A DNA stretch of 64,000 nucleotides, taken from the NCBI GenBank assembly GCA_964590885.1, contig CAZPWW010000009.1, positions 35,764 through 99,763 on the forward strand, given 5' to 3'. This stretch comes from an uncultured Phycisphaeraceae bacterium. GTDB taxonomy: Bacteria > Planctomycetota > Phycisphaerae > Phycisphaerales > UBA1924. This document shows positions 1,523 to 44,069 of the stretch, one piece after another (positions within the stretch are counted from its first letter, which is position 1; every line of letters starts with the position of its first letter). Below the pieces are notes generated by a model. That model made no database searches, was not told the DNA's origin, and worked only from the letters and a program-made list of their open reading frames with translations. Position numbers and translations under genes: made by a program.

Positions 1523-2002
1523 CTACCCCAGCGCCCGCAGCCAATAAACGACCGCTATGACGCCAAGCCAGACGGGCGGCTCGTACTTGCGCATACCGCG
1601 GCCGAGGACCACGTCACGCGTGCTGCGCGCGCGCCACGGCGCGTTGTTCTGGTCCACTGCTTCCGAGAGAGCCGCACGGCTCGCGGGGCCGAGGAGGGTC
1701 TGATCGAGCACCGATAGGGATGAGCGGATCACCCTAAAGCGGACCCCGGCGTATCGCTCCTCGATCATCCACAGAAGCGCGAACACGGCCACCGGCAGCA
1801 GCGCAGCCAAGGCCGTCGTGTGCGTCCCGCGCCATATCGCCGCGCACACGGCAGCACCGACGCAGAGGGTCCGGCCGAGCACTCGCCATACTAAGACAGA
1901 TTGCCACACCAAGCGGAAGTCGGCAACAAGCAGGTGACCCGTCTGGCTCTGTGCCATCGTGGGCGGCGCGTGCGGCTCGGGCTTTCGCTCAGGCGACTCC
2001 AT
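1523..2002 (-). CDS. small predicted 3-TM membrane protein, immediately downstream of the GTPase gene
   Basis: ORF 1523..2053. Candidate ATGs are at 2002 (14-nt overlap with the GTPase stop) and 1957. Hydrophobic segments are LCVGAAVCAAIW, ALAALLPVAVFALLWMI and VWLGVIAVVYWL. I recognise no family. Confidence 0.55.
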   Translation of the reverse strand: MESPERKPEPHAPPTMAQSQTGHLLVADFRLVWQSVLVWRVLGRTLCVGAAVCAAIWRGTHTTALAALLPVAVFALLWMIEERYAGVRFRVIRSSLSVLDQTLLGPASRAALSEAVDQNNAPWRARSTRDVVLGRGMRKYEPPVWLGVIAVVYWLRALG

Positions 2003-2681
2003 TGACCTTGGCCCGTTTGCACGCCTTGTGGGCGAGAGTGTGGAGGAAGTCATTGAACATCCCCGGGGCTTTTTCGTGCCGGACCATGATCGTGGGCTTT
2101 ATCGTGACGTCGTCCGGCTTGAAGCCGAACTTACCAACAAGTCCGGCCTTGAGTGCACGCCGCAACCGGTTGTGGAAATCTTCCGGAGCCGTGCACAGGT
2201 CGTGCTTGTTTGCCAAGCAAATGACCGTATGCGGTCTGTCGAGGGGCTCCATGTTGTCGGCAAGATTGCACAAGGCCTTGCAGAAATCGCTCAGCCAGTC
2301 CGCCGATTCGGCCGGCTTGCTGCCGTCGGTCATAGCCACGACGATGTCGGGTGCATCGCAGAGTGCGGCGCCCGCCTGCCGTCCGACGCGATTGGTACCG
2401 GGCAGGGCTGTCGCGCGGCGAAACGTCAGGACGTGCTTTGTGCCGTCGACCTCAACGCGGAGGCGCTTGTACGTTTCGGACCCTTGGCTTACGGCCGTGG
2501 TTTCGTGGTCAGGGAAATGTCCGGACGCGAGCACGTCGATGAACGTGCTCTTCCCGGCCCCGGACGGGCCAACGACTAGCAGACGCTGGCCCCAAACTTC
2601 CGCTTGGACCCATCGCAGTGGCTGCGGACCGATCAATTTTGCGACTTGAACCGTAAACCCGACGACCGTGCTTGTGTCCAT
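1989..2681 (-). CDS. small P-loop GTPase-like protein (Era/Ras-like TRAFAC class)
   Basis: Walker A/G1 is GPSGAGKS (aa 38-45). A G3-like ALPG is at aa 92-95, with A in place of the usual D. G4 is NKHD (aa 158-161) in the context ICLANKHDL. GGAGG lies 7 nt upstream of the ATG at 2681. Confidence 0.7.
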   Translation of the reverse strand: MDTSTVVGFTVQVAKLIGPQPLRWVQAEVWGQRLLVVGPSGAGKSTFIDVLASGHFPDHETTAVSQGSETYKRLRVEVDGTKHVLTFRRATALPGTNRVGRQAGAALCDAPDIVVAMTDGSKPAESADWLSDFCKALCNLADNMEPLDRPHTVICLANKHDLCTAPEDFHNRLRRALKAGLVGKFGFKPDDVTIKPTIMVRHEKAPGMFNDFLHTLAHKACKRAKVNGVA

Positions 2682-2888
2682 GCAGTGGCCTCCACGAGGT
2701 CCGCCCCCAGTGCAGAACGCGTAGAGGCTGGTCCAGTATACCCGCTTGCCAAGGCCTTCCGTAGCGAGTGGATTCTGTGCCGAGTTGGACCGGCGTGCAG
2801 GTCGTGTTGGGATCCGTGGGCACGCGCTAGCGGCACGCTCGCTGAGGCACGGCGGGGCCGTCGATGCAGCCCGCCCTCCCTCACCCCG

Positions 2889-3545
2889 TCACTCCAGAAA
2901 CGAGATGCGGTCCACGATGAGGCTGCCCGCGTTCTCCAGGTCTAGCATGTACTTTGGTGGACGGGGCTTCCCGTTCGAGTTACGTCCCTGCTTCATTTCT
3001 CCGAGCGTGGCCGCCGACAGCTTGTCCAGTCGTAGGAAAAGGATTTCCCGAAGGAGCGCGTGCGTCTTGCGGTACCGCGACACGGCGGTGCGCGATCGCC
3101 GGTCCTTCTCGTAGGCCGAGAGGCCGCCCTTGAGTTTGCTGTGCCACTTCTGAAACGTGCGGTCGCAGTCGTTGTACTCAACGTCGCAGAGCCCGATCAG
3201 CACGCCGTGGTAGCCGTACGCCGCGATGCTGGCATCGGTGGCCGCACGGTCATTCAGGATGCACGTGTGGGCATCGGACTTGATGGCCTTGGCCTTCATG
3301 TCCCAGTTGACCGCGCCCTTGAGATCGAACGACACCGAGCCGAACCGATCCCCTGGGATCTGGAACGCGTTGCCTAGCCGAGAGCGGCAAAGGAACTCGA
3401 AGTAGAAAGCCCACCATTCCATCTGCCGCCAGTTGTAGTTCGCCTCCTTGAGCTCCAGCACGCACTTCTTGCCCTCCCAATCCCGTGGCATCGCTTCGAG
3501 GTACGCCTTGGCGCTGGCGATGTCTTTAGAAAAGGCGGGTGTCAT
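2889..3545 (-). CDS. putative Type II restriction endonuclease (PD-(D/E)xK-like)
   Basis: The internal ATG at 3545 overlaps the methyltransferase stop by 20 nt. The FDLKG...WDMKAK pattern is compatible with D...(D/E)xK. The call rests mainly on this position directly 3' of the MTase. Confidence 0.55.
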   Translation of the reverse strand: MTPAFSKDIASAKAYLEAMPRDWEGKKCVLELKEANYNWRQMEWWAFYFEFLCRSRLGNAFQIPGDRFGSVSFDLKGAVNWDMKAKAIKSDAHTCILNDRAATDASIAAYGYHGVLIGLCDVEYNDCDRTFQKWHSKLKGGLSAYEKDRRSRTAVSRYRKTHALLREILFLRLDKLSAATLGEMKQGRNSNGKPRPPKYMLDLENAGSLIVDRISFLE

Positions 3546-4371
3546 TCTGTACCTCCTGCCGCAGGCGGCGCAGCGCGATGGTGTGGTAGGCCTCGTTGAT
3601 CTCGATGCCGAGATAGCGCCGCTTCGCTCTCGCCGCCATGACGCACGTGGTCCCGCTCCCGCACATGGGGTCGAGCACAAGGTCGCCGGGCTTGGAGAAG
3701 CACTGGATGAGATCATCCGCCAGGCGGTCCGGATAGGTGGCGGGGTGCTCAAGCTTGGTGCGATTGCCCTCCGTGTTGCTGGTGGCGTATTCCCACAGTG
3801 TGCCCCGGCACTTCATGTCGTTCACCGCCTTCGGCTCGATCCTTTTGAAACCGCCGTTCGTGAGCCGATCCGTTCCCGAATACACCCTGCCGGCGTGCTT
3901 GGACGGGATCATGAGCATGGTCTTGTCGAAGTGGCGCGGCCGCGGCCCACGGAAGAAGATCAGGATGTACTCGTGATCCACACGGAACCGCTGGCTCCAC
4001 CACGCTCCGGGGTTCCCGTGGCGCTGGTAGATGCAACACTCAAAAAGCCGCCATCCGGCGCGGTCAACCCAGTCCACCGCCCACCTGAACGTCGTCAGCG
4101 ACTTGGCGAAGTCCTTTGTGCCGTCCCCGATGACCACGGCGCACACACCGCCCTCGGCCGTGGCCTGGTAGAGCAGATCGCCCAGCGCGCGGTAGTCCAG
4201 TGCCCAGTTCTTCCCGTAGTCGCGGATGCCGTCGTACGGCGGGCTGAAGACCGTCAGGGCCACCGAGCCCGCCGGGACGTCGGCCAAGACATCCAGCGCG
4301 TCGCCCAAGTGGATCGTGTCGCCTTGGTTCTGAGACGCCTTGGGGCGACGTTGTACGTGCACTCTGGTCAT
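3526..4371 (-). CDS. beta-class DNA methyltransferase (SPPY motif IV before motif I; N4-cytosine or N6-adenine)
   Basis: Motif IV is TVFSPPYDG, followed by C-terminal motif I LDPMCGSGTT. Start chosen at ATG 4371 (MTRVHVQRR...). The ORF is open upstream to a TTG at 4656, running through the 21-bp repeat. Confidence 0.85.
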   Translation of the reverse strand: MTRVHVQRRPKASQNQGDTIHLGDALDVLADVPAGSVALTVFSPPYDGIRDYGKNWALDYRALGDLLYQATAEGGVCAVVIGDGTKDFAKSLTTFRWAVDWVDRAGWRLFECCIYQRHGNPGAWWSQRFRVDHEYILIFFRGPRPRHFDKTMLMIPSKHAGRVYSGTDRLTNGGFKRIEPKAVNDMKCRGTLWEYATSNTEGNRTKLEHPATYPDRLADDLIQCFSKPGDLVLDPMCGSGTTCVMAARAKRRYLGIEINEAYHTIALRRLRQEVQNDTRLF

Positions 4372-4477
4372 ACGCCGCCAGTCTATCCGGCATCCGTTCG
4401 GCGTGCCCGGCCTTCCCCCTCTGCGTCCCTCCGCGCCCTCTGCGCTGCTCTGCGTACAGCCCGGCTTCGCGGCGGAT

Positions 4478-4645
4478 GGACCGGAGAAAGTCCCGCGTGC
4501 GCTGGAGAAACCCCGGCCCGCGCTGGAGAAACTCTCGTTCGCGCTGGAGAAACTCTCGTTCGCGCTGGAGAAACTCTCGTTCGCGCTGGAGAAACTCTCG
4601 TTTGCGCTGGAGAAACTCTCCGCCGCGCTGGAGAAAATCTCGCGC
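4478..4645. repeat. 21-bp tandem repeat, about 8 copies (consensus GCGCTGGAGAAACTCTCGTTC)
   Basis: Three perfect copies (4520-4540, 4541-4561, 4562-4582) plus a one-mismatch copy at 4583-4603. More degenerate copies flank them at 4478-4519 and 4604-4645. The array lies in the 381-bp gap between the MTase start (4371, -) and the ATG at 4753 (+). Confidence 0.9.
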
Positions 4646-4752
4646 GCAGGGGGCAAGGCCGCTCAAGTACCCCCCGCAGCGGTTCGAGAACATGGACGCA
4701 CGCCTGTTGCGTGCCCGTTTCGCTCGTCTCTCTCACAGAAAGGAGCCTTGTC

Positions 4753-5454
4753 ATGGCCACGAGCACGTTTCCGACCACGCCCCGGGCCGCGTTCCTCACC
4801 TGGGGCCTCGCCCACGCCATCGTTTTCGACAACGAGGAGGGGAACATCGGCCTTACGGCCGGGCAGGTCACCGCGTTCACCAACGCCATCAACGCCGCCA
4901 ACGCCGCCAACCAGGCTCAGGAGAACGCGCGGCTCGCCTACCGCTCCGCCGTGAGCGCGGCCACCGAGGCGTTCAACGCGGCCCGCCGCTCGGCCAGCCT
5001 CACCACCAAGGTGATCCGCACATTCGCCGACACAAGCAACAACCCCAACGTCTACACGCTGGCCCAGATCCCGCCGCCCGCCGTGCCCGGCACCGCGCCG
5101 CCGCCCGCCAAGCCCAGCGACCTGAGCGTGGAACTCAACACTGCGTCGGGCGCTCTCACGCTGCGCTGGAAGGCGAGTAACCCCGTCGGCACCACCGGCA
5201 CCAGTTACCTCATCAAACGCAAACTCCCCGGGCAGGCCGAGTTCGTCTACGCCGGCATCTCGGGCGAGAAGAAGTTTGTTGACAACAACTTCATCGCCGG
5301 GCCGGACTCCGTGCAGTACACGGTGCAGGGCCACCGCTCCGACGCCGTGGGCCCCGAGTCCGACGCCTTCACCATCAACTTCGGCAAGACCGCCAGCGGC
5401 CAGGTGGTCGCCACCGTGGCGGGCGAAGAGCAGCAGATGAAGCTGGCCGCGTAG
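4753..5454 (+). CDS. hypothetical protein with C-terminal fibronectin type III-like domain
   Basis: AGGAG lies 8 nt upstream of the ATG at 4753. The C-terminal LSVELNTASGALTLRWKASNP...SYLIKRK...VQYTVQG pattern is typical of Fn3. The 668-aa ORF upstream of 4753 is antisense to the R-M genes. Confidence 0.7.
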   Translation: MATSTFPTTPRAAFLTWGLAHAIVFDNEEGNIGLTAGQVTAFTNAINAANAANQAQENARLAYRSAVSAATEAFNAARRSASLTTKVIRTFADTSNNPNVYTLAQIPPPAVPGTAPPPAKPSDLSVELNTASGALTLRWKASNPVGTTGTSYLIKRKLPGQAEFVYAGISGEKKFVDNNFIAGPDSVQYTVQGHRSDAVGPESDAFTINFGKTASGQVVATVAGEEQQMKLAA

Positions 5455-5470
5455 CCGCGGGGCGGCAAAG

Positions 5471-5735
5471 GGCCAAATGGCCAAATGGCCAAATGAAAAA
5501 CATGAGCCAACCCCAGGGGGGCCGCAAGGCTCCCCTTTTTCGTTGGTGGCAAGGGGAGCACCACAAAGGCACAAAGGGCACAAAGGAAGACCGGTGCAGA
5601 GTGCACGCGGGCACAGCGCCGGATGCCGGGTGCCGAATGCCGACTCACCGCGAAGGCCGCGATGAGTACGAAGGACTCAGGACCAAGGACCCAGGACTCA
5701 GGACCACTTCGCCACTTCGCCACTCTGCCACTTCC
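5471..5735. repeat. series of short tandem word blocks: (GGCCAAAT)x3, (GCACAAAG)x3, (TGCCGNN)x4, (AGGACNN)x5, (CACTTCGC)x4
   Basis: Read directly at about 5471-5494, 5561-5587, 5618-5645, 5672-5706 and 5704-5735. All lie in the 310-bp gap before the LOG-family gene. Confidence 0.85.
5515..5540 (+). terminator. Rho-independent terminator
   Basis: GGGGGGCC-gcaa-GGCTCCCC hairpin (one G-U pair) followed by TTTTT, 60 nt after the stop at 5454. Confidence 0.7.
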
Positions 5736-8072: not shown

Positions 8073-9767
8073 TCACCCCAGCACGCGCTGCAACTCCGAC
8101 TCGGTCGTGAGCCCGCGCGACGACTTGTCGCGTCCGTCGTCCAGCAGGGTCTTCATGCCCGCGGCCCGGGCCGCGTCGGCGAGCGCGACCGCATCGGCCC
8201 GCTGCACGGTGAGGCGGCGGAGGGTGTCGTTCATCACCATGATCTCAAACAAGCCCACGCGCCCGTAGTAGCCGGTGCCGATGCAGCGCTCGCAGTGCCC
8301 CCCCGCCGGGCCCAGGGCCGTGCCCTTGCACTGCGGGCAGGTGCGCCGCACGAGACGCTGAGCGATCACCGCCAGGAGCGTGCTCGTGACCAGATACGGC
8401 TCGATGCCGATGTCGAGCACGCGCGCGATTGCGCCCGGCGCGTCGTTGGTGTGCAGCGTGGCGAGCACAAGGTGGCCGGTGAGCGAGGCCTGCACGGCCA
8501 GTTGGGCCGTCTCCTGGTCGCGGATCTCGCCGACGAGGATCACGTCCGGGTCCTGGCGGAGCAGGGCCCGCAGGCCGGCCGCGAAGGTGACGCCGCGCTT
8601 GGTGTTCACCTGCGTCTGGCTGATGCCGTCGAGGTGGTACTCGACGGGGTCTTCGATGGTCATGACGTTGCGGCTGGTGCGGTCGATGCCGCCGAGCGCG
8701 CCGTAGAGTGTGGTGGTTTTGCCGCTGCCGGTGGGGCCGGTGACGAGGATGATGCCGGTGGGGCGCGAGATCAACTCCATGAGTTGGCCGCGCTGCACGG
8801 GCGTCATGCCCACCTCTTCCAGCCCCAGTTTGTTCTGGCTCTGATCCAGCAGGCGCAGCACGATGCGCTCGCCGTAGACGTTGGGGATGACGCTGAGGCG
8901 GATGTCGATCTTGCGGCTGCCGATGCGCACGGTGGCGTGGCCGTCCTGCGGGGTGTGGCGGTTGGCGATGTCGAGTTCGGTCATCACCTTGAGGCGCGAA
9001 CTGATGGCGGGAGCGAGGGCCAGGGGCGGCGAGAACGAATCGACGAGCATGCCGTCGATGCGGAAGCGGATGACCAGCTTGGTCTCCATGGGGTGGACGT
9101 GGATGTCGCTGGCCCGCCGCCGCAGGGCCTCAAACAGGATCATGTTGACGAGGCGGATGACGGGTGTCTGGCGGGCCAGTTGCAGGAGGTCGGTGGCGGC
9201 CTTCACGCTGCCCGCGGCGGTCTGGATGGCCCGCTCATCCAGCGGCATCTCCTCGACGATCTCGGTGACCAGGTCCTGCCGCTGCTCGTAGCCGCGGTTG
9301 AGCAGGTTGGTGACGGCGGCGCGGGGCGAGAGCACCAGCCGCACGGGCGCGTCGAGGCGGTCCTCGAGCAGCGAGAACGCGGCGGGCTGGAGCGGCTGGC
9401 TGGTGGCGACAGTGAACGAGAGGCCGTCGGCGGCGATGGCCGCGGCCTGAAACTCACGGGCCATGGATCCGGGCACCAACTCGTAGTAACGGGCCGCGCC
9501 CTCCGAAAGTTTGGGCTCGGTCACCAGCGGCAAGCCCGTGCGCTGGGCCAGCCGCTCGAGCGCGGCGTGCTCGTCGATGGCGAGCATGGAGACGAGCACG
9601 TCCCAACTCTCGGTGTCGGAGCCGGGCAGATCGGGGAAGGCCCGCACCTGCTCGGCCGTCAGGCCCAGAGGCCCCGACAGCGCGGCGACGCGGGCGTGCT
9701 CACGCGGCGGTGCCACCGCCACGGGCGCGGCGGGTCGCTTGAAGCGTGCCAGCGGGGCCTCAGCCAC
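8073..9767 (-). CDS. gspE: type II secretion / type IV pilus assembly ATPase (GspE/PilB family)
   Basis: Walker A GPTGSGKTTT, MTIEDPVEY, RQDPDVILVGEIRD and TGHLVLATLHTNDA. Start chosen at GTG 9767 (GTGGCTGA, overlapping the secretin stop). The ORF is open to ATG 9854. Confidence 0.85.
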   Translation of the reverse strand: MAEAPLARFKRPAAPVAVAPPREHARVAALSGPLGLTAEQVRAFPDLPGSDTESWDVLVSMLAIDEHAALERLAQRTGLPLVTEPKLSEGAARYYELVPGSMAREFQAAAIAADGLSFTVATSQPLQPAAFSLLEDRLDAPVRLVLSPRAAVTNLLNRGYEQRQDLVTEIVEEMPLDERAIQTAAGSVKAATDLLQLARQTPVIRLVNMILFEALRRRASDIHVHPMETKLVIRFRIDGMLVDSFSPPLALAPAISSRLKVMTELDIANRHTPQDGHATVRIGSRKIDIRLSVIPNVYGERIVLRLLDQSQNKLGLEEVGMTPVQRGQLMELISRPTGIILVTGPTGSGKTTTLYGALGGIDRTSRNVMTIEDPVEYHLDGISQTQVNTKRGVTFAAGLRALLRQDPDVILVGEIRDQETAQLAVQASLTGHLVLATLHTNDAPGAIARVLDIGIEPYLVTSTLLAVIAQRLVRRTCPQCKGTALGPAGGHCERCIGTGYYGRVGLFEIMVMNDTLRRLTVQRADAVALADAARAAGMKTLLDDGRDKSSRGLTTESELQRVLG

Positions 9768-12588
9768 GGGGCGTGCCCTCCGAGAGCCCGGCAGACGACG
9801 CGGGAGGGGCGGGGGGGGCGGGGGGGGCGGGCACGCGGGGCCGCTCGAGCACATCGATGCGGATGGGCTTGAGGGGCGGCAGATCGGGCTGCTCGGCGGG
9901 CGTGAGGATCGCCTGCGGGCCGCGCGTGAGCAGGCGCAGGTCGTTGAACGTGGGGTCGCGCATCACGCGGGGGGTGAGGAAGATGTAGAGCGTGCGGTCG
10001 GTGGTGCTGGTGCTGGTGTCGCTGAAGAGCGGGCCGATGATGGGCAGATCGCCAAGAAGCGGGATCTTGATGACGGTCTTGCCCGTCTGCGTGCTGGTGA
10101 GGCCGCCGACCACGATGGTGGAATCGCTGGGGATGGTGACGGACTTGGAATCCACCTTGTTGGTGAGGCGCGGCGGCGGGATCACGGTGCCGTTGGCGCT
10201 GGTGGTGCCGGTGCCCTGAAAACTCGAGAGTTCGATCGTGTACTCGAGTTTCATGTAGTTGCCCTCGGAGATCTGCGGGCGAACGGTGAGCTTGGTGCCC
10301 GCCTCCTCGAAACCGCCGAAGCCGGTGAGCGTGGTGCTGGAGGAGCCCGACTGGCTCTGGGTGGTGGTGGGCTGCTCGTCCTTCACCTCCACGTTGGCCT
10401 CCTCGTTGTCGTCAACCAGGAGTTGCGGCCGGGCCAGGATGCGGGTCTTGCTCTCGCTGGCGAGCGCGTTGATGATGACGGGCACGTACTCGCTCTTGAT
10501 GATCGCGCCGGTGAAGCCCGCCAGCCCGGTGGCGACGTTCTTGCGGGTGGTGAAGGCGCCGTTGGTGGCGTTGGTGCCCGTGCCGCTGGTGAAGGAGCCC
10601 AGGCCGAACGCGGTGTTGAGCACGCCGCCGGACCCCTGCGCGTTGATCAACTGCGTCTCGAAGGCGAGGCGGAAGCCGTCGTTGCCGGAGATGGCGACGA
10701 TCAGGGCCTCGATGTACACCTGCGGGCGGCGCAGGTCGAGTTTCTCGATGAGCCGGGCGAACTGCGGCTGCAGGCGGCGCGGAGCCTTCACGAACACCTG
10801 GTTGTTCTGCGGATCGGACCCGACGTGGATGTCCTCGCCCGCGTTGATGGCCCCCAACTCGCCCGCGCGGGCACCCGCGTCGGGTCCCGCGGCCGTGAAC
10901 TGCACCGCCCCCGCGGCCGACTCTCCCCGGCGCGGCAGGCGCAGGGCGTTGTTGGTGTTCGTGCCCGCGGGCGCACCGGGCAAGAGCGGCCCGGCCGACT
11001 GCGGCCGCGTCTGGTTGGTGATGAGTTCCTGGATGATGGCCGCGATGTCGTCGGCCTTGCCGTGCCGCAGTTTGTAGAACTCGTACACCACGGTCTCGGC
11101 GGCGGTGATCTCCTTGAACTCATCCGCCAGCCGCTGCACCTCGACCTGCTGCTGCTCGGTGCCGTAGTAGATGAAGCCGCGCCCCTCGGGGTCGATCAGG
11201 AAGATCGACCCGCCCTCGGTGGTCTGGGAGCCTTGCCCGAAGGGGTTCACCTGCCCCTGCTGCAGGCCCGGCTGGTTGCCGGTGTTCAGGCCGTTGAAGG
11301 CGATGTTGCCCGCGCCGGCGCTCGCGTCGCGGGCACTGGGCAGTGTCACGATCTGGCCGAGACCCTGCCGCTGGCCGTGCTGGGCGAGTTGGATCGCCGC
11401 CGAGCCGATCGGATACCACTTGGGCCTCAGCCGGTTGGGCTTGTCCACCACCGCCAGCAGCCGCGTGATGAACTCCTGCTCGTCGGGCCGGCCGCGGAAG
11501 ATGAGCGCGTTGCTGGACGGATCGGGGATGAGCCGGTCGGCGAGGTTGGAAAGGTTGGTGCTGCCGCCGATCCCCGCCGCCGCCTGCTGGGCCTGGATCG
11601 CGGCCTGGGCCGGGTCCAGCGGGTTGCTGCTGCGACCGCCGCGCCCCAACAACTCGAGCAGCCGCTGGCGTGCCACGGGCGCCGCGATGTACGTGAGTTC
11701 GAAGAACGCGATGTCCTGCTTGCTCTGCTCGGCCGCGAGGCGGGCCACCAGTTGCTTGACCAACTCGATGCGGCGGGGCGTGTCGGTCATCAAGACCACG
11801 CCCAGGTCGTCGAGGTACGCGATCGAGCCCCCCCCAGCACCGCCCTGACCCAGACCGCCCGCGCCGCCCTTGGTCACCACGCTGATGGCCGTCGCCAGCG
11901 ACGACGGCTTCAGTCCGCTGGTGGGGATGAGTTGCGTGGCGGAGAACGCGTCATCGCCGATGCCGCCGAAGGCCTCTTGCGGGCCCTTGACGATGTAGAC
12001 ACCGGCCACGTCGGTGGTCATCGCCGCGCCGTTCTGTTCCATGAGCATGGTGAGGAACTGGAGCAGGTCGTCTTTGGGGATGCTCACGGGCACCGACAGG
12101 TAGATTTTCTTGCTCATCACGCCGATGGCCTGGTCGGTGGTGATGACCTGAATCTTGAGTTGCTCGATCACCAGATCCACCAGCAGCCGCATCTCGATGC
12201 CGTCAGCGAAGGGGCCGAAGTGGAAGAAGTTGTCGTCGGCCGAAACCGCCGGGGCCGCGTTCTTGCCGTTGGCGGGGACCGCGGGCGCGATCGGCTTCGC
12301 CTCCGGCGCGGCAGCGGGGGCAGCGGGCCCGCCCTGTTGCACCGGCACCGCCACGGGTACGGCCGGGGGTGGTGCCGGCGCTTCAGGCGGCTGTGCCGGT
12401 GGCGCGTCCGGCTGGGGCTGCGGGCTGGGTGGCGCATCCGCGGGCGGCTCGGCCAGCAGGGCCAGCGCGGCGGGCGCCCCGCCCAGAGCCCACGCGAGGC
12501 CCGCGGCACAAGCCAGGCGGGCCGCGCCGCCTCGAGCCCGAGTGCGAACAACAAGGGAAAGAGAGAGGGGGCGGCCGAGTGTTGCCAT
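9760..12588 (-). CDS. gspD: secretin (GspD/PilQ family) with Pro/Ala-rich N-terminal linker
   Basis: C-terminal secretin motifs ILARPQLLVDDNEEA and IPLLGDLPIIGPLF. Signal-like N-terminus MATLGRPLSLSLVV...ALALLA from the ATG at 12588. Confidence 0.85.
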   Translation of the reverse strand: MATLGRPLSLSLVVRTRARGGAARLACAAGLAWALGGAPAALALLAEPPADAPPSPQPQPDAPPAQPPEAPAPPPAVPVAVPVQQGGPAAPAAAPEAKPIAPAVPANGKNAAPAVSADDNFFHFGPFADGIEMRLLVDLVIEQLKIQVITTDQAIGVMSKKIYLSVPVSIPKDDLLQFLTMLMEQNGAAMTTDVAGVYIVKGPQEAFGGIGDDAFSATQLIPTSGLKPSSLATAISVVTKGGAGGLGQGGAGGGSIAYLDDLGVVLMTDTPRRIELVKQLVARLAAEQSKQDIAFFELTYIAAPVARQRLLELLGRGGRSSNPLDPAQAAIQAQQAAAGIGGSTNLSNLADRLIPDPSSNALIFRGRPDEQEFITRLLAVVDKPNRLRPKWYPIGSAAIQLAQHGQRQGLGQIVTLPSARDASAGAGNIAFNGLNTGNQPGLQQGQVNPFGQGSQTTEGGSIFLIDPEGRGFIYYGTEQQQVEVQRLADEFKEITAAETVVYEFYKLRHGKADDIAAIIQELITNQTRPQSAGPLLPGAPAGTNTNNALRLPRRGESAAGAVQFTAAGPDAGARAGELGAINAGEDIHVGSDPQNNQVFVKAPRRLQPQFARLIEKLDLRRPQVYIEALIVAISGNDGFRLAFETQLINAQGSGGVLNTAFGLGSFTSGTGTNATNGAFTTRKNVATGLAGFTGAIIKSEYVPVIINALASESKTRILARPQLLVDDNEEANVEVKDEQPTTTQSQSGSSSTTLTGFGGFEEAGTKLTVRPQISEGNYMKLEYTIELSSFQGTGTTSANGTVIPPPRLTNKVDSKSVTIPSDSTIVVGGLTSTQTGKTVIKIPLLGDLPIIGPLFSDTSTSTTDRTLYIFLTPRVMRDPTFNDLRLLTRGPQAILTPAEQPDLPPLKPIRIDVLERPRVPAPPAPPAPPASSAGLSEGTPRG

Positions 12589-42041: not shown

Positions 42042-44069
42042 CTACTTCTGCTCGGTGATGGCCTTCTGCACATCGGGCCGGACCTTCGCCTCGCGCGCGG
42101 CCCGGTACTCGGCGTACCCCTCGGGCGGGGGAAACCAGGTGTCGAACTTGGGTTGGCCGTTCTTTGCGGCCAGTTCGTCAACCTTGGGCTTGAGCGTGGT
42201 GGAGAGTTCGTCGTAGGCGGCCAGTTGCAGGTCTTGGGGCGCCCGGGCGTAGATGATGGCCCCGTCCTCGAACGAGCCGTCGGCCACGCCGAGCTGGATC
42301 ATCACCGCGATCATGATGCGGCTGGCGGCCTCGCCGAAATCTCTGGGGAGCACCTCGAGGCGGGCCCGCTCGGGGTCGACCTGGGTGTTCTTGTACTGCT
42401 CCTTCATGTAGACGGCGTGGAAGAGTTTGGCGTACTCCATCTGGCGGCGGAACTGCTCGGTGTCGCCGAACAGGAGGCCCTGCACGTAGGCCGACTGGAG
42501 CGCGCCCTGGATCTCGGCCACGGCCACGTTGGGCGTGGTGACGCGGTTGTAGACCTGGCGGAGCACGAACTCGTCGAGCGGGAGTTCGAGTTGGAACTGC
42601 TGCTCGACCTTGTCGTGCCAGTTGAGGCGGCCGGCCGCGAAGTCGGAGTAGAGCAGGTCCTTGTATTCCTGGGCGGTGCCCACGTCGCCGCGCCGGTACA
42701 TGTAACTGATGGCGTCGCGCATGAAGTTCTCGTAGCCGGCGTTGTAGAGTTTGTAGGGGCGCTCGGTGATGTCGGCCTTGCGCTGGTCCATCATCTGGCG
42801 GGCCTCGCGCTCGCCCACCGCCATCATGATCTCCCGGTACGTCGGGATGAAGTCGGGGTTGGGCAGCGTCATGTAGTACTCGGGCCGCAGAACATCGAAC
42901 ACGACGGTGCCGTAGCGGAAGAGTTCCTGCACGCTGTGCAGCGCGATGCGGTCGGTGTTGATGAAGTCGAGGTCGGAGCGGTTCTGCTCCGTGGCCTTGC
43001 CGTCGGCCTCGTCCACCCCGCGGGTGGCCCAGTACAGGGCGTGGGCCGCGGCGTGCCGCCAGTCGAGCGGGCCGAAACGCCGCACGGTCGCCACCATCCG
43101 CTCGGGCTCCATGCGGTAATGATCCACCAGCACGCGCTTGCGCACGTGGGGCACCAGCACGGCAAACGCGTCGTCGTGGGCACGATCGCCCAGCACGCGC
43201 ATGATCGGGCTGTCGGTGGCTCCGAAGCCGATCCTGGGCAGAGCCTGCCGCAGCCGCTCCAGGGCCCGCCCGTATTCGATGCCCGCCAGCAGGGCGAGCC
43301 GACCTTCGGTGCTCTTGAGGTCAAGCCCGGCCTCGTCGCGCAGGCGCGCGATCAGCGCGGCGGCACGCGGCTCCTTGACCACGACCTCGTCGAGCGTTTC
43401 CGCCGCGCCGGCCACGCGCTGGAGGAAGGCGGCGGCCTCGTCGATGGACTGAGCCCGCGTCTGCGTGAGCGAGGCGCGCCGGGGCGGGCCCAGCGCGATC
43501 GTCCACTCCAGCGCAAACATTCGTTTGTAATAGTTGTGGGCGTCGTCCATCACGCCCTGCACCTTGTGCAGCAGGATCCACGCCAACTCCTTGTGGATGA
43601 ACATGTCATTGGGGTTGGATGGGATGCCCTCCTCGCGGAGCAAGCGGATCCCCGAGTTCACCCACTGCCAGCGCTCCGTGTGCGTCTGCGTGGCGACGGA
43701 GATGTTGTACGCCAGGTTCCACGCGTGAAAGGCCCACACGCGGGGGAAGCGCGGCTGCAGGCGCGTGATGGTGCGGGCCAGATCGACCGCCTCGTAGAAG
43801 TTGCCGTCTTCCTTGGCCTTGTTGGCCCGCCACCACAACGCGTTGACAAACAGCCCGCGGAACGCGCCCATGGCGATGCCGATGCCGACCTCGGGCGGGT
43901 CGCCCTCCTCGGCACGGTCGGTGTACACCAGCCCGTTCCGGCCCACGCTGCCCGCAACCCAGGTGGTGGTGGCCACCGAGCCGCCCAGAGCCGCCAGCAT
44001 GGTGGCGCCGGCCGCGAGTTGGACAAACGTGTCTCGACGCATGAAGAACGCGCTCCGCGCACGGGGCAT
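42042..44069 (-). CDS. conserved hypothetical protein (N-terminal membrane anchor, helical-repeat-like), last gene of the SPFH/ABC operon
   Basis: 675-aa ORF with high GC3. It starts 1 nt after the permease stop. No family recognised. Confidence 0.6.
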   Translation of the reverse strand: MPRARSAFFMRRDTFVQLAAGATMLAALGGSVATTTWVAGSVGRNGLVYTDRAEEGDPPEVGIGIAMGAFRGLFVNALWWRANKAKEDGNFYEAVDLARTITRLQPRFPRVWAFHAWNLAYNISVATQTHTERWQWVNSGIRLLREEGIPSNPNDMFIHKELAWILLHKVQGVMDDAHNYYKRMFALEWTIALGPPRRASLTQTRAQSIDEAAAFLQRVAGAAETLDEVVVKEPRAAALIARLRDEAGLDLKSTEGRLALLAGIEYGRALERLRQALPRIGFGATDSPIMRVLGDRAHDDAFAVLVPHVRKRVLVDHYRMEPERMVATVRRFGPLDWRHAAAHALYWATRGVDEADGKATEQNRSDLDFINTDRIALHSVQELFRYGTVVFDVLRPEYYMTLPNPDFIPTYREIMMAVGEREARQMMDQRKADITERPYKLYNAGYENFMRDAISYMYRRGDVGTAQEYKDLLYSDFAAGRLNWHDKVEQQFQLELPLDEFVLRQVYNRVTTPNVAVAEIQGALQSAYVQGLLFGDTEQFRRQMEYAKLFHAVYMKEQYKNTQVDPERARLEVLPRDFGEAASRIMIAVMIQLGVADGSFEDGAIIYARAPQDLQLAAYDELSTTLKPKVDELAAKNGQPKFDTWFPPPEGYAEYRAAREAKVRPDVQKAITEQK

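Follow-up and report, generated by a model that had tools for sequence, protein, structure and literature searches.

We found that a tandem array of eight 21-bp units, located at positions 4478–4645 of the window (the whole 64,000-nucleotide stretch analyzed here), almost certainly belongs, on comparison of related loci, with the Fn3-domain family gene that follows it on the plus strand. By the same comparison, the adjacent methyltransferase is an incidental neighbor. The array appears to represent, in the window, a conserved cis-element without coding function that accompanies a planctomycete (Phycisphaerae) family of helical/Fn3 proteins of about 230 amino acids. The explanation that we favor, and hold to be somewhat likelier right than wrong, is that the units are phased protein-binding sites on the same face of the helix, iteron-like or operator-like, which tune transcription of the family gene and behave as a VNTR. 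The relevant features of the window are the following.

Positions 2889–3545, minus strand: 218-aa ORF, a putative restriction partner that overlaps the methyltransferase stop; GC3 0.83; outside the conserved module.
Positions 3526–4371, minus strand: Type II beta-class N6/N4 DNA methyltransferase of 281 aa (Pfam PF01555, E = 5e-29), the divergent neighbor.
Positions 4478–4645, no strand assigned: tandem array of eight 21-bp units, head-to-tail, with consensus GCGCTGGAGAAACTCTCGTTC; the central three units are identical.
Positions 4499–4636, no strand assigned: seven invariant 12-bp cores GCGCTGGAGAAA, exactly 21 bp apart, the presumed contact blocks.
Positions 4646–4752, plus strand: unique 107-bp spacer or leader from the array to the start codon, with an SD-like AGAAAGGAG at 4737–4745 and a single ACATGGACGCA at 4690–4700.
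Positions 4753–5454, plus strand: 233-aa family gene (helical N-domain, Pro-rich linker, Fn3), the gene that the array accompanies.
Positions 5515–5536, plus strand: terminator-like GC hairpin and then a T-run, after the family gene.

Tandem Repeats Finder reported one array at 4483–4647 (period 21, 7.9 copies, 87% matches, score 209), by far the strongest in the window; the rest of the window held no comparable array and just two rows of about two copies each with period 21. Set in register from 4478, the units read as follows.

Unit at 4478: GGACCGGAGAAAGTCCCGCGT.
Unit at 4499: GCGCTGGAGAAACCCCGGCCC.
Units at 4520, 4541 and 4562: GCGCTGGAGAAACTCTCGTTC, three perfect copies.
Unit at 4583: one mismatch, ending in GTTT.
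Unit at 4604: ending in CTCCGCC.
Unit at 4625: GCGCTGGAGAAAATCTCGCGC.

This agrees with a sequence-only reading made earlier, which had counted about eight copies, three of them perfect and one with a single mismatch; the other four units are more diverged. The distances given in that reading were also right: the array lies 107 bp from the methyltransferase ATG (4371) and 108 bp from that of the family gene (4753). Searching for the unit beyond the array, as the reading had proposed, we found the 21-mer nowhere else in the 64-kb window: at up to three mismatches there were six matches, all inside the array, with 0.00 expected. The 12-bp core, at up to one mismatch, had eight matches in the window versus 0.36 expected. 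Seven of these were exact and lay in the array, and the eighth was a one-mismatch copy at 43416; outside the array, the exact core GCGCTGGAGAAA is absent from the window. An exact-pattern scan of GTDB genomes for the window core pair returned two chance matches only. Within the array, differences from the consensus were concentrated outside the core, with 3/96 in columns 1–12 versus 17/72 in columns 13–21 (Fisher P = 6e-5; conserved-block test for the window array, P = 0.047).

We placed the start codon of the family gene at 4753 because GC3 climbs only from about 4740 and because the family N terminus, M-x-T-Y-P-T-S-P-R, is conserved; the array is therefore intergenic. The array itself is non-coding with near certainty, judging from its frames and its pattern of substitution. 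All six frames are free of stops over its length. A random 56-codon frame of the same composition would be stop-free about 33% of the time, and an open frame therefore carries no evidential weight. The differences between units show no codon periodicity, and the 20-bp period of sister arrays excludes a coding role for this class of array. The minus-strand frame does read (NESFSSA)n, in frame with the methyltransferase and open to a TTG at 4656, as had been described. The methyltransferase, however, aligns over residues 14–275 with positions 6–255 of 260 in the PADLOC MTase_II profile, and over residues 16–270 with residues 31–274 of 283 in PDB 8urk; this end-to-end alignment with methyltransferase profiles and solved structures shows that it is already full length from the ATG at 4371. 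A translated repeat, in the methyltransferase frame or any other, was thus rejected on the full-length enzyme, the six open frames, the absence of codon periodicity and the 20-bp sister periods, and the earlier view that a repeat-bearing N-terminal extension is unlikely was borne out.

The same observations bear on whether the array serves the restriction–modification genes, either as an operator or phase-variation element of the methyltransferase promoter or as an (NESFSSA)n extension translated from the TTG at 4656. The array lies 107 bp from the methyltransferase ATG and in frame with it, the GC3 of that frame is about 0.8, and the window unit contains CTGGAG, a known type IIS/IIG recognition sequence. 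However, GC1 of the methyltransferase frame is 0.33, atypical of coding sequence here, no C-protein gene is present, and the inverted repeat in the window unit, GAGAaacTCTC, is no longer than in shuffled sequences (P = 0.53). The same type of array occurs at about 30 of 32 loci of the Fn3 gene, none of which shares the methyltransferase or any other neighbor. A restriction–modification role, which the sequence-only reading had implied in describing the array as upstream of that operon, is therefore extremely unlikely and is, across the loci compared, already contradicted. Two specific forms of it were also rejected: a C-box operator, on the lack of an HTH gene and on the inverted-repeat test, and a phasevarion repeat (1–7 bp in an ORF or core promoter), since a 21-bp unit keeps both frame and phase and lies outside the full-length methyltransferase ORF.

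The "R-M operon" is itself putative, since the endonuclease candidate at 2889–3545 lacks detectable relatives, with no match in Pfam, NCBIfam, PADLOC or the PDB; the label remains plausible for the methyltransferase and this ORF. Both genes sit in a GC dip (2001–4400, 0.62 versus about 0.69 for the window), which suggests, from composition, recent horizontal acquisition beside the array. Between the methyltransferase start and the array, at 4418–4461, we observed a 9-bp repeat of the CCTCTGCG type, which is also found at locus L003 (5381–5423) and in the spacer of L057 (5764–5792). The window as a whole has a GC content of 69%, and Pfam matches near the array include a secretin, a T2SS/T4P-type (T2SSE) ATPase, a LOG-family protein and an EamA transporter, from which we conclude that it is chromosomal DNA of a diderm bacterium. 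The T2SSE/PilB-like ATPase, which carries an MshEN domain, and the secretin form a cluster, for type IV pili or type II secretion, at 8073–12354 on the minus strand. No plasmid or phage matches of the window were found beyond conserved genes, and the protein family has no members among viral contigs; a phage or plasmid origin was rejected on these grounds. The locus is present in public bioreactor, sand and biofilter metagenome runs; a search for RNA runs returned none for the window or for L025.

Downstream of the family gene, the terminator-like hairpin at 5515–5536 suggests, from sequence, that the gene is monocistronic. The 310-bp intergenic region after the gene (5466–5734) is a mosaic of five tandem blocks of 7–8 bp around this hairpin, with units CAAATGGC, CACAAAGG, GCCGGAT, AAGGACC and CCACTTCG, each present three to five times. 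Similar intergenic blocks of 7, 8, 14 or 16 bp occur at L003, L009, L025, L036, L041, L043, L044, L051 and L055–L061, and short tandem blocks seem to be widely used in these genomes.

The 233-aa protein has no family match in Pfam, NCBIfam or PADLOC, and no signal peptide was evident by visual inspection of its N terminus. In an AlphaFold2 model (mean pLDDT 84), a short helix and one of 60 residues precede a Pro-rich linker and an Fn3 sandwich, and Foldseek searches with this model matched solely Fn3 domains, in the PDB and among viral models. The family comprises at least 531 clusters at 50% identity (E ≤ 1e-30), almost all of 220–260 aa, and 170 clusters at 90% identity; the window protein has its nearest relatives in MAGs of Phycisphaerales and other Planctomycetota. 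In the family alignment, the long N-terminal helix is the most variable region. The N-domain is acidic (median pI 5.7); the linker and Fn3 domain together are mildly basic (median pI 9.4) and contain invariant basic residues. Many family proteins terminate in (K/R)(L/M)AA, with LAA ending 15 of 47 (5440–5454 in the window). As the ssrA degradation tag has a similar C terminus, the proteins with such ends might be protease substrates.

To place the array within the family, we assembled 51 family loci from metagenome contigs and seven more through a contig index, and collapsed loci with proteins at least 90% identical, which left 32 non-redundant loci with assessable upstream DNA. An array detectable by Tandem Repeats Finder, with a period of 20, 21 or 42 bp, was present at 24 of these, 165–670 bp upstream of the ATG (−666 to −165). 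Six more showed a degenerate periodicity at lags of 20, 21, 42 or 63 in the same upstream zone, and two had neither array nor periodicity upstream. Among loci negative by Tandem Repeats Finder, the top self-similarity lag was 20, 21, 42 or 63 at 8 of 12, with 59 lags tested (binomial P = 2e-7). L030/L031 only seems to be negative: its array lies 2.5 kb upstream, with an intervening ORF between array and gene. At L003, a homolog with 76% identity from another Phycisphaerales MAG, no methyltransferase lies beside the gene, and an array of 11 units with a 21-bp period and a different unit sits 245 bp upstream of the ATG. In the other DNA of the same loci (about 210 kb), we found eight arrays of the 20/21/42 period class: the displaced L030/L031 array, counted twice, a coding 84-bp repeat, four made of 7/8-bp units and one genuine 21-bp array.

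When all ORFs at 52 loci were compared with one another, no neighboring gene proved to be conserved, nor was a regulator gene found linked to the family module at these loci. From the recurrent array and the lack of a conserved neighbor, we therefore define the module as the array, a unique spacer of about 100–500 bp with an SD-like GAAAGGA(G), and the family gene; GAAAGGA(G) lies 6–10 nt before the ATG at most family loci. Three further repeats were seen in flanking DNA. At L003 (4573–6523), a Y1-transposase (RAYT-like) gene followed by a 315-bp repeat (1.9 copies) rich in GC-rich hairpins lies upstream of the array; L039 carries an 84-bp repeat (13.7 copies, 90% identical) at 94–1245, and L029 a 69-bp repeat (7.5 copies) at 1394–1908, the latter two probably encoding repeat proteins.

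The window array ends 107 bp before the ATG, nearer than at any other locus (at least 165 bp), and could overlap the promoter or sit in the leader. We found no sigma-70 consensus in the spacer at 4646–4752. The lone ACATGGACGCA of the spacer, 53–63 bp ahead of the ATG, is identical to the repeated array core of L029, L013, L030 and L025 and may, by this identity, be an isolated copy of a site which other loci have multiplied.

This position raises the possibility that the array acts as RNA, transcribed as a long 5′ leader in which the units are decoys for protein or ribosome binding or are structural modules. Each window unit does contain an SD-like GGAG, the array is close to the ATG, and no promoter was located between array and gene. 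However, the sense strand of many arrays lacks GGA, and core orientation is opposite among close relatives. The core GGA(T)GAAAC(TC) recurs in the window's clade, at L003 (GGGATGAAACTC, reverse), L061 (CAGGGATGAAAATC, forward) and L055 (GGATGAAAC, reverse), so that it runs in the same direction as the gene in the window and L061, and against the gene in L003 and L055; the arrays of L003, L029 and L037 each contain units of both orientations. In addition, the sense-strand RNA folds no better than shuffled sequences (z = −1.1) and there is no Rfam match for the array; the antisense strand has an MFE z of −3.2, but its centroid structure leaves the array unpaired. We therefore regard a leader-RNA function as distinctly unlikely.

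Comparison of the arrays with the protein tree showed that they evolve quickly. Unit sequences are unrelated among paralogs of one assembly, as at the four VYMG01 loci, and are common to sister loci on the tree, where the 20-bp period marks one clade. The proteins of L006 and L012 are at least 90% identical and their arrays have the 20-bp period in common, yet the units clearly differ, which indicates that the arrays turn over faster than the gene. Among near-identical loci sampled separately, L008, L010 and L013 carry three, four and five copies of one sub-unit next to virtually identical spacers and genes, and L023, L024 and L028 differ by 21-bp indels. Because tandem repeats can collapse in short-read metagenome assemblies, the source of these copy numbers, the counts should be treated cautiously; in public runs, the window's own array is found as short unitigs collapsed at the repeat. 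The contigs of L019, L020 and L056 start inside or beside the array, as expected if arrays break short-read assembly.

One explanation for these patterns is that the array is a functionless mini-satellite, neutral or selfish, which descends from a 21-bp array of the founder gene and has been regenerated by slippage and unequal exchange (concerted evolution). Several features are consistent with this: the units follow the protein tree, with a period 1 bp shorter fixed in one clade; the identical central units in the window are consistent with recent duplication; the higher-order periods of 42, 63 and 105 bp are typical of unequal exchange; near-identical loci differ by unit-sized indels; and these genomes are rich in intergenic short tandem repeats. 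Nevertheless, the array has been kept at about 30 of 32 loci whose proteins are just 40–50% identical, despite the bacterial deletion bias, and arrays of this period are scarcely found in about 270 kb of other DNA from these genomes. Old, degenerate arrays that are no longer homogenized still hold particular columns at 21-bp spacing, and variable columns across the family arrays cluster outside a block of about 11 bp (Fisher combined P = 0.001). We consequently hold the mini-satellite explanation to be unlikely.

A joint alignment of 24 array profiles, in which rotation and orientation were optimized together, reached 6.80 bits versus 5.47 ± 0.15 for column-permuted nulls (0 of 40 reached the observed value), an excess that partly reflects common descent because the arrays are not independent. 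The resulting pattern is weak, approximately GGA(N)..AAC, and is present in both orientations. A universal sequence motif was rejected, as the sharing of k-mers (CATGG, AAACTC, CATGGAC) was not family-wise significant. Also rejected were a reading of the GTGGA(C/T) cores as DnaA boxes, in which just 5–6 of 9 positions are alike, and one of the units as palindromic operators: several look palindromic by eye, yet just 5 of 22 arrays exceed shuffled sequences. Nor did the spacing of a sigma-54 or an ECF promoter fit.

A further alternative requires no specific protein: units of two helical turns could sum small bends into a curved segment that stimulates or insulates a promoter. A wedge model whose positive control behaved correctly predicts curvature for the window array (end-to-end/contour ratio 0.90 versus 0.975 for shuffles, z = −4), and many units contain one short A/T tract in otherwise GC-rich DNA. 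However, greater curvature than in shuffles is predicted for just 3 of 20 arrays, which led us to reject intrinsic curvature as a common property, and a model based on curvature alone needs no conserved core blocks. A purely structural role is thus very improbable.

Taken across the family, the pattern of sequences suggests a conserved, fast-evolving regulatory platform, and we return to phased protein-binding sites as the favored explanation. Each unit would consist of a contact block of about 11–12 bp and then a tolerant linker of about 9–10 bp and, given a repeat length of two helical turns (21 bp, or 20 in a single clade), the blocks would all lie on the same side of the duplex. The array would then be a multi-site landing platform, upstream of the family-gene promoter, for an oligomerizing DNA-binding protein, which would activate or repress through the DNA itself, whichever way the units point. 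Whole units would be gained or lost by slippage or unequal exchange, altering the number of sites, and presumably the level of expression, with helical phase kept. The two-turn, same-face geometry of the iteron or operator-array type, which had been noted from the window alone, holds and remains the best mechanistic reading. By contrast, the suggestion that copy-number change would alter promoter spacing is unlikely to be the point, as a step of 21 bp keeps helical phase and changes the number of sites. From these patterns we infer all three of protein binding, an effect on transcription and a tuning of expression by copy number. The constant period could merely be inherited, since unequal exchange preserves unit length and would require no selection on phase.

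Another alternative is that the family protein itself recognizes its own upstream array, for autoregulation or in a centromere-like or anchor-like complex (compare ParR–parC and SopB–sopC). Array and gene are the sole co-inherited partners, with no other gene linked, and a single common regulator poorly explains why units differ among paralogs of one assembly. The most variable part of the protein is its long N-terminal helix, and the linker-plus-Fn3 part is the mildly basic one with invariant basic residues. Against this, no DNA-binding fold was recognized, Foldseek matches being to Fn3 domains only; the N-domain is acidic; no partner NTPase is linked; and near-identical cores, GTGGACCAAC, occur at L017 and L022, which belong to distant protein clades. 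We consider self-recognition quite improbable. An extension of it, to which we give equally little weight, pairs an address with its reader: the Fn3 protein would be made beside a private 21-bp array, bind it and polymerize along one face of the DNA, perhaps through its basic beta-sandwich in the way of eukaryotic Ig-fold transcription factors. If that were true, both the bacterial DNA-binding proteins of this family and their cognate sites would form new classes. The arrays would then serve planctomycetes as mutually orthogonal, rapidly changing landmarks on the chromosome, used in anchoring, segregation or the organization of the nucleoid.

Among known systems, the arrays resemble iterons, such as those of R6K (22 bp, seven copies), P1 (19 bp at about 21-bp spacing) and RK2 (17 bp at about 22 bp). 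In both cases direct tandem repeats of about 20 bp are spaced by two turns on the same face (here, eight units with period 21), a conserved contact block is joined to a variable remainder, and the repeats lie beside one gene that co-evolves with them. Unlike iterons, the arrays accompany an Fn3-domain protein rather than a winged-helix Rep initiator, and they are chromosomal, with several copies per genome that each have a different unit. No Rep initiator gene was adjacent or conserved at the 52 loci, and no replication-origin features were identified.

Tandem-repeat centromeres, including R1 parC (11 bp, ten copies), pSK41 parC (20 bp, four copies) and F sopC (43 bp, twelve copies), are similar in having phased repeats upstream of a gene, and the known ones nucleate a cooperative nucleoprotein filament. 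Their periods of 20 or 43 bp come near those found here, in 20/21-bp units and a 42-bp super-period. The arrays differ from parC, sopC and tubC in that Pfam searches of flanking genes showed no linked ParA/ParM/TubZ-type NTPase and no RHH/HTH adaptor, and palindromic sub-sites are not general in the family arrays.

At contingency loci such as ctxAB, preceded by TTTTGAT heptads to which ToxR binds, and Haemophilus hmw1A/hmw2A, which have 7-bp repeats upstream, strain-variable VNTR copy number sets the number of regulator sites and hence expression. The family arrays likewise are upstream tandem repeats (108–275 bp before the ATG in the window and 165–670 bp in the family) of genes that form a multi-copy family of variable sequence. 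The copy differences between sister loci (3/4/5 copies and 21-bp indels), seen in short-read assemblies, suggest that the arrays may be polymorphic in the manner of promoter VNTRs. They differ in having a unit three times longer that preserves phase, and in being kept family-wide over deep divergence rather than being strain-specific. Two other repeat classes were rejected. CRISPR arrays do not fit units that run head-to-tail with no unique spacers and whose 42-bp super-periods are two related unit types, and for REP/BIME palindromes the inverted-repeat length beat shuffles in just those same 5 of 22 arrays, the window array not among them. In the literature that we searched, such arrays are not described for planctomycetes. 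We conclude that the arrays are a gene-family-wide, phase-preserving upstream repeat platform.

These results carry a warning for annotation, in that a repeat can lie beside a methyltransferase and in frame with it, yet be unrelated to it. To our knowledge, almost nothing is known about the regulation of transcription in planctomycetes, especially Phycisphaerae. The arrays provide a sharply defined cis-element, with a two-turn period, a fixed upstream position, a core block and fast turnover, that is tied to one large gene family and offers a handle for finding the DNA-binding factor. They also constitute a natural series of orthogonal, operator-like arrays that vary in copy number, phase and orientation, and are a candidate for a copy-number-tunable expression system outside the classical pathogens.
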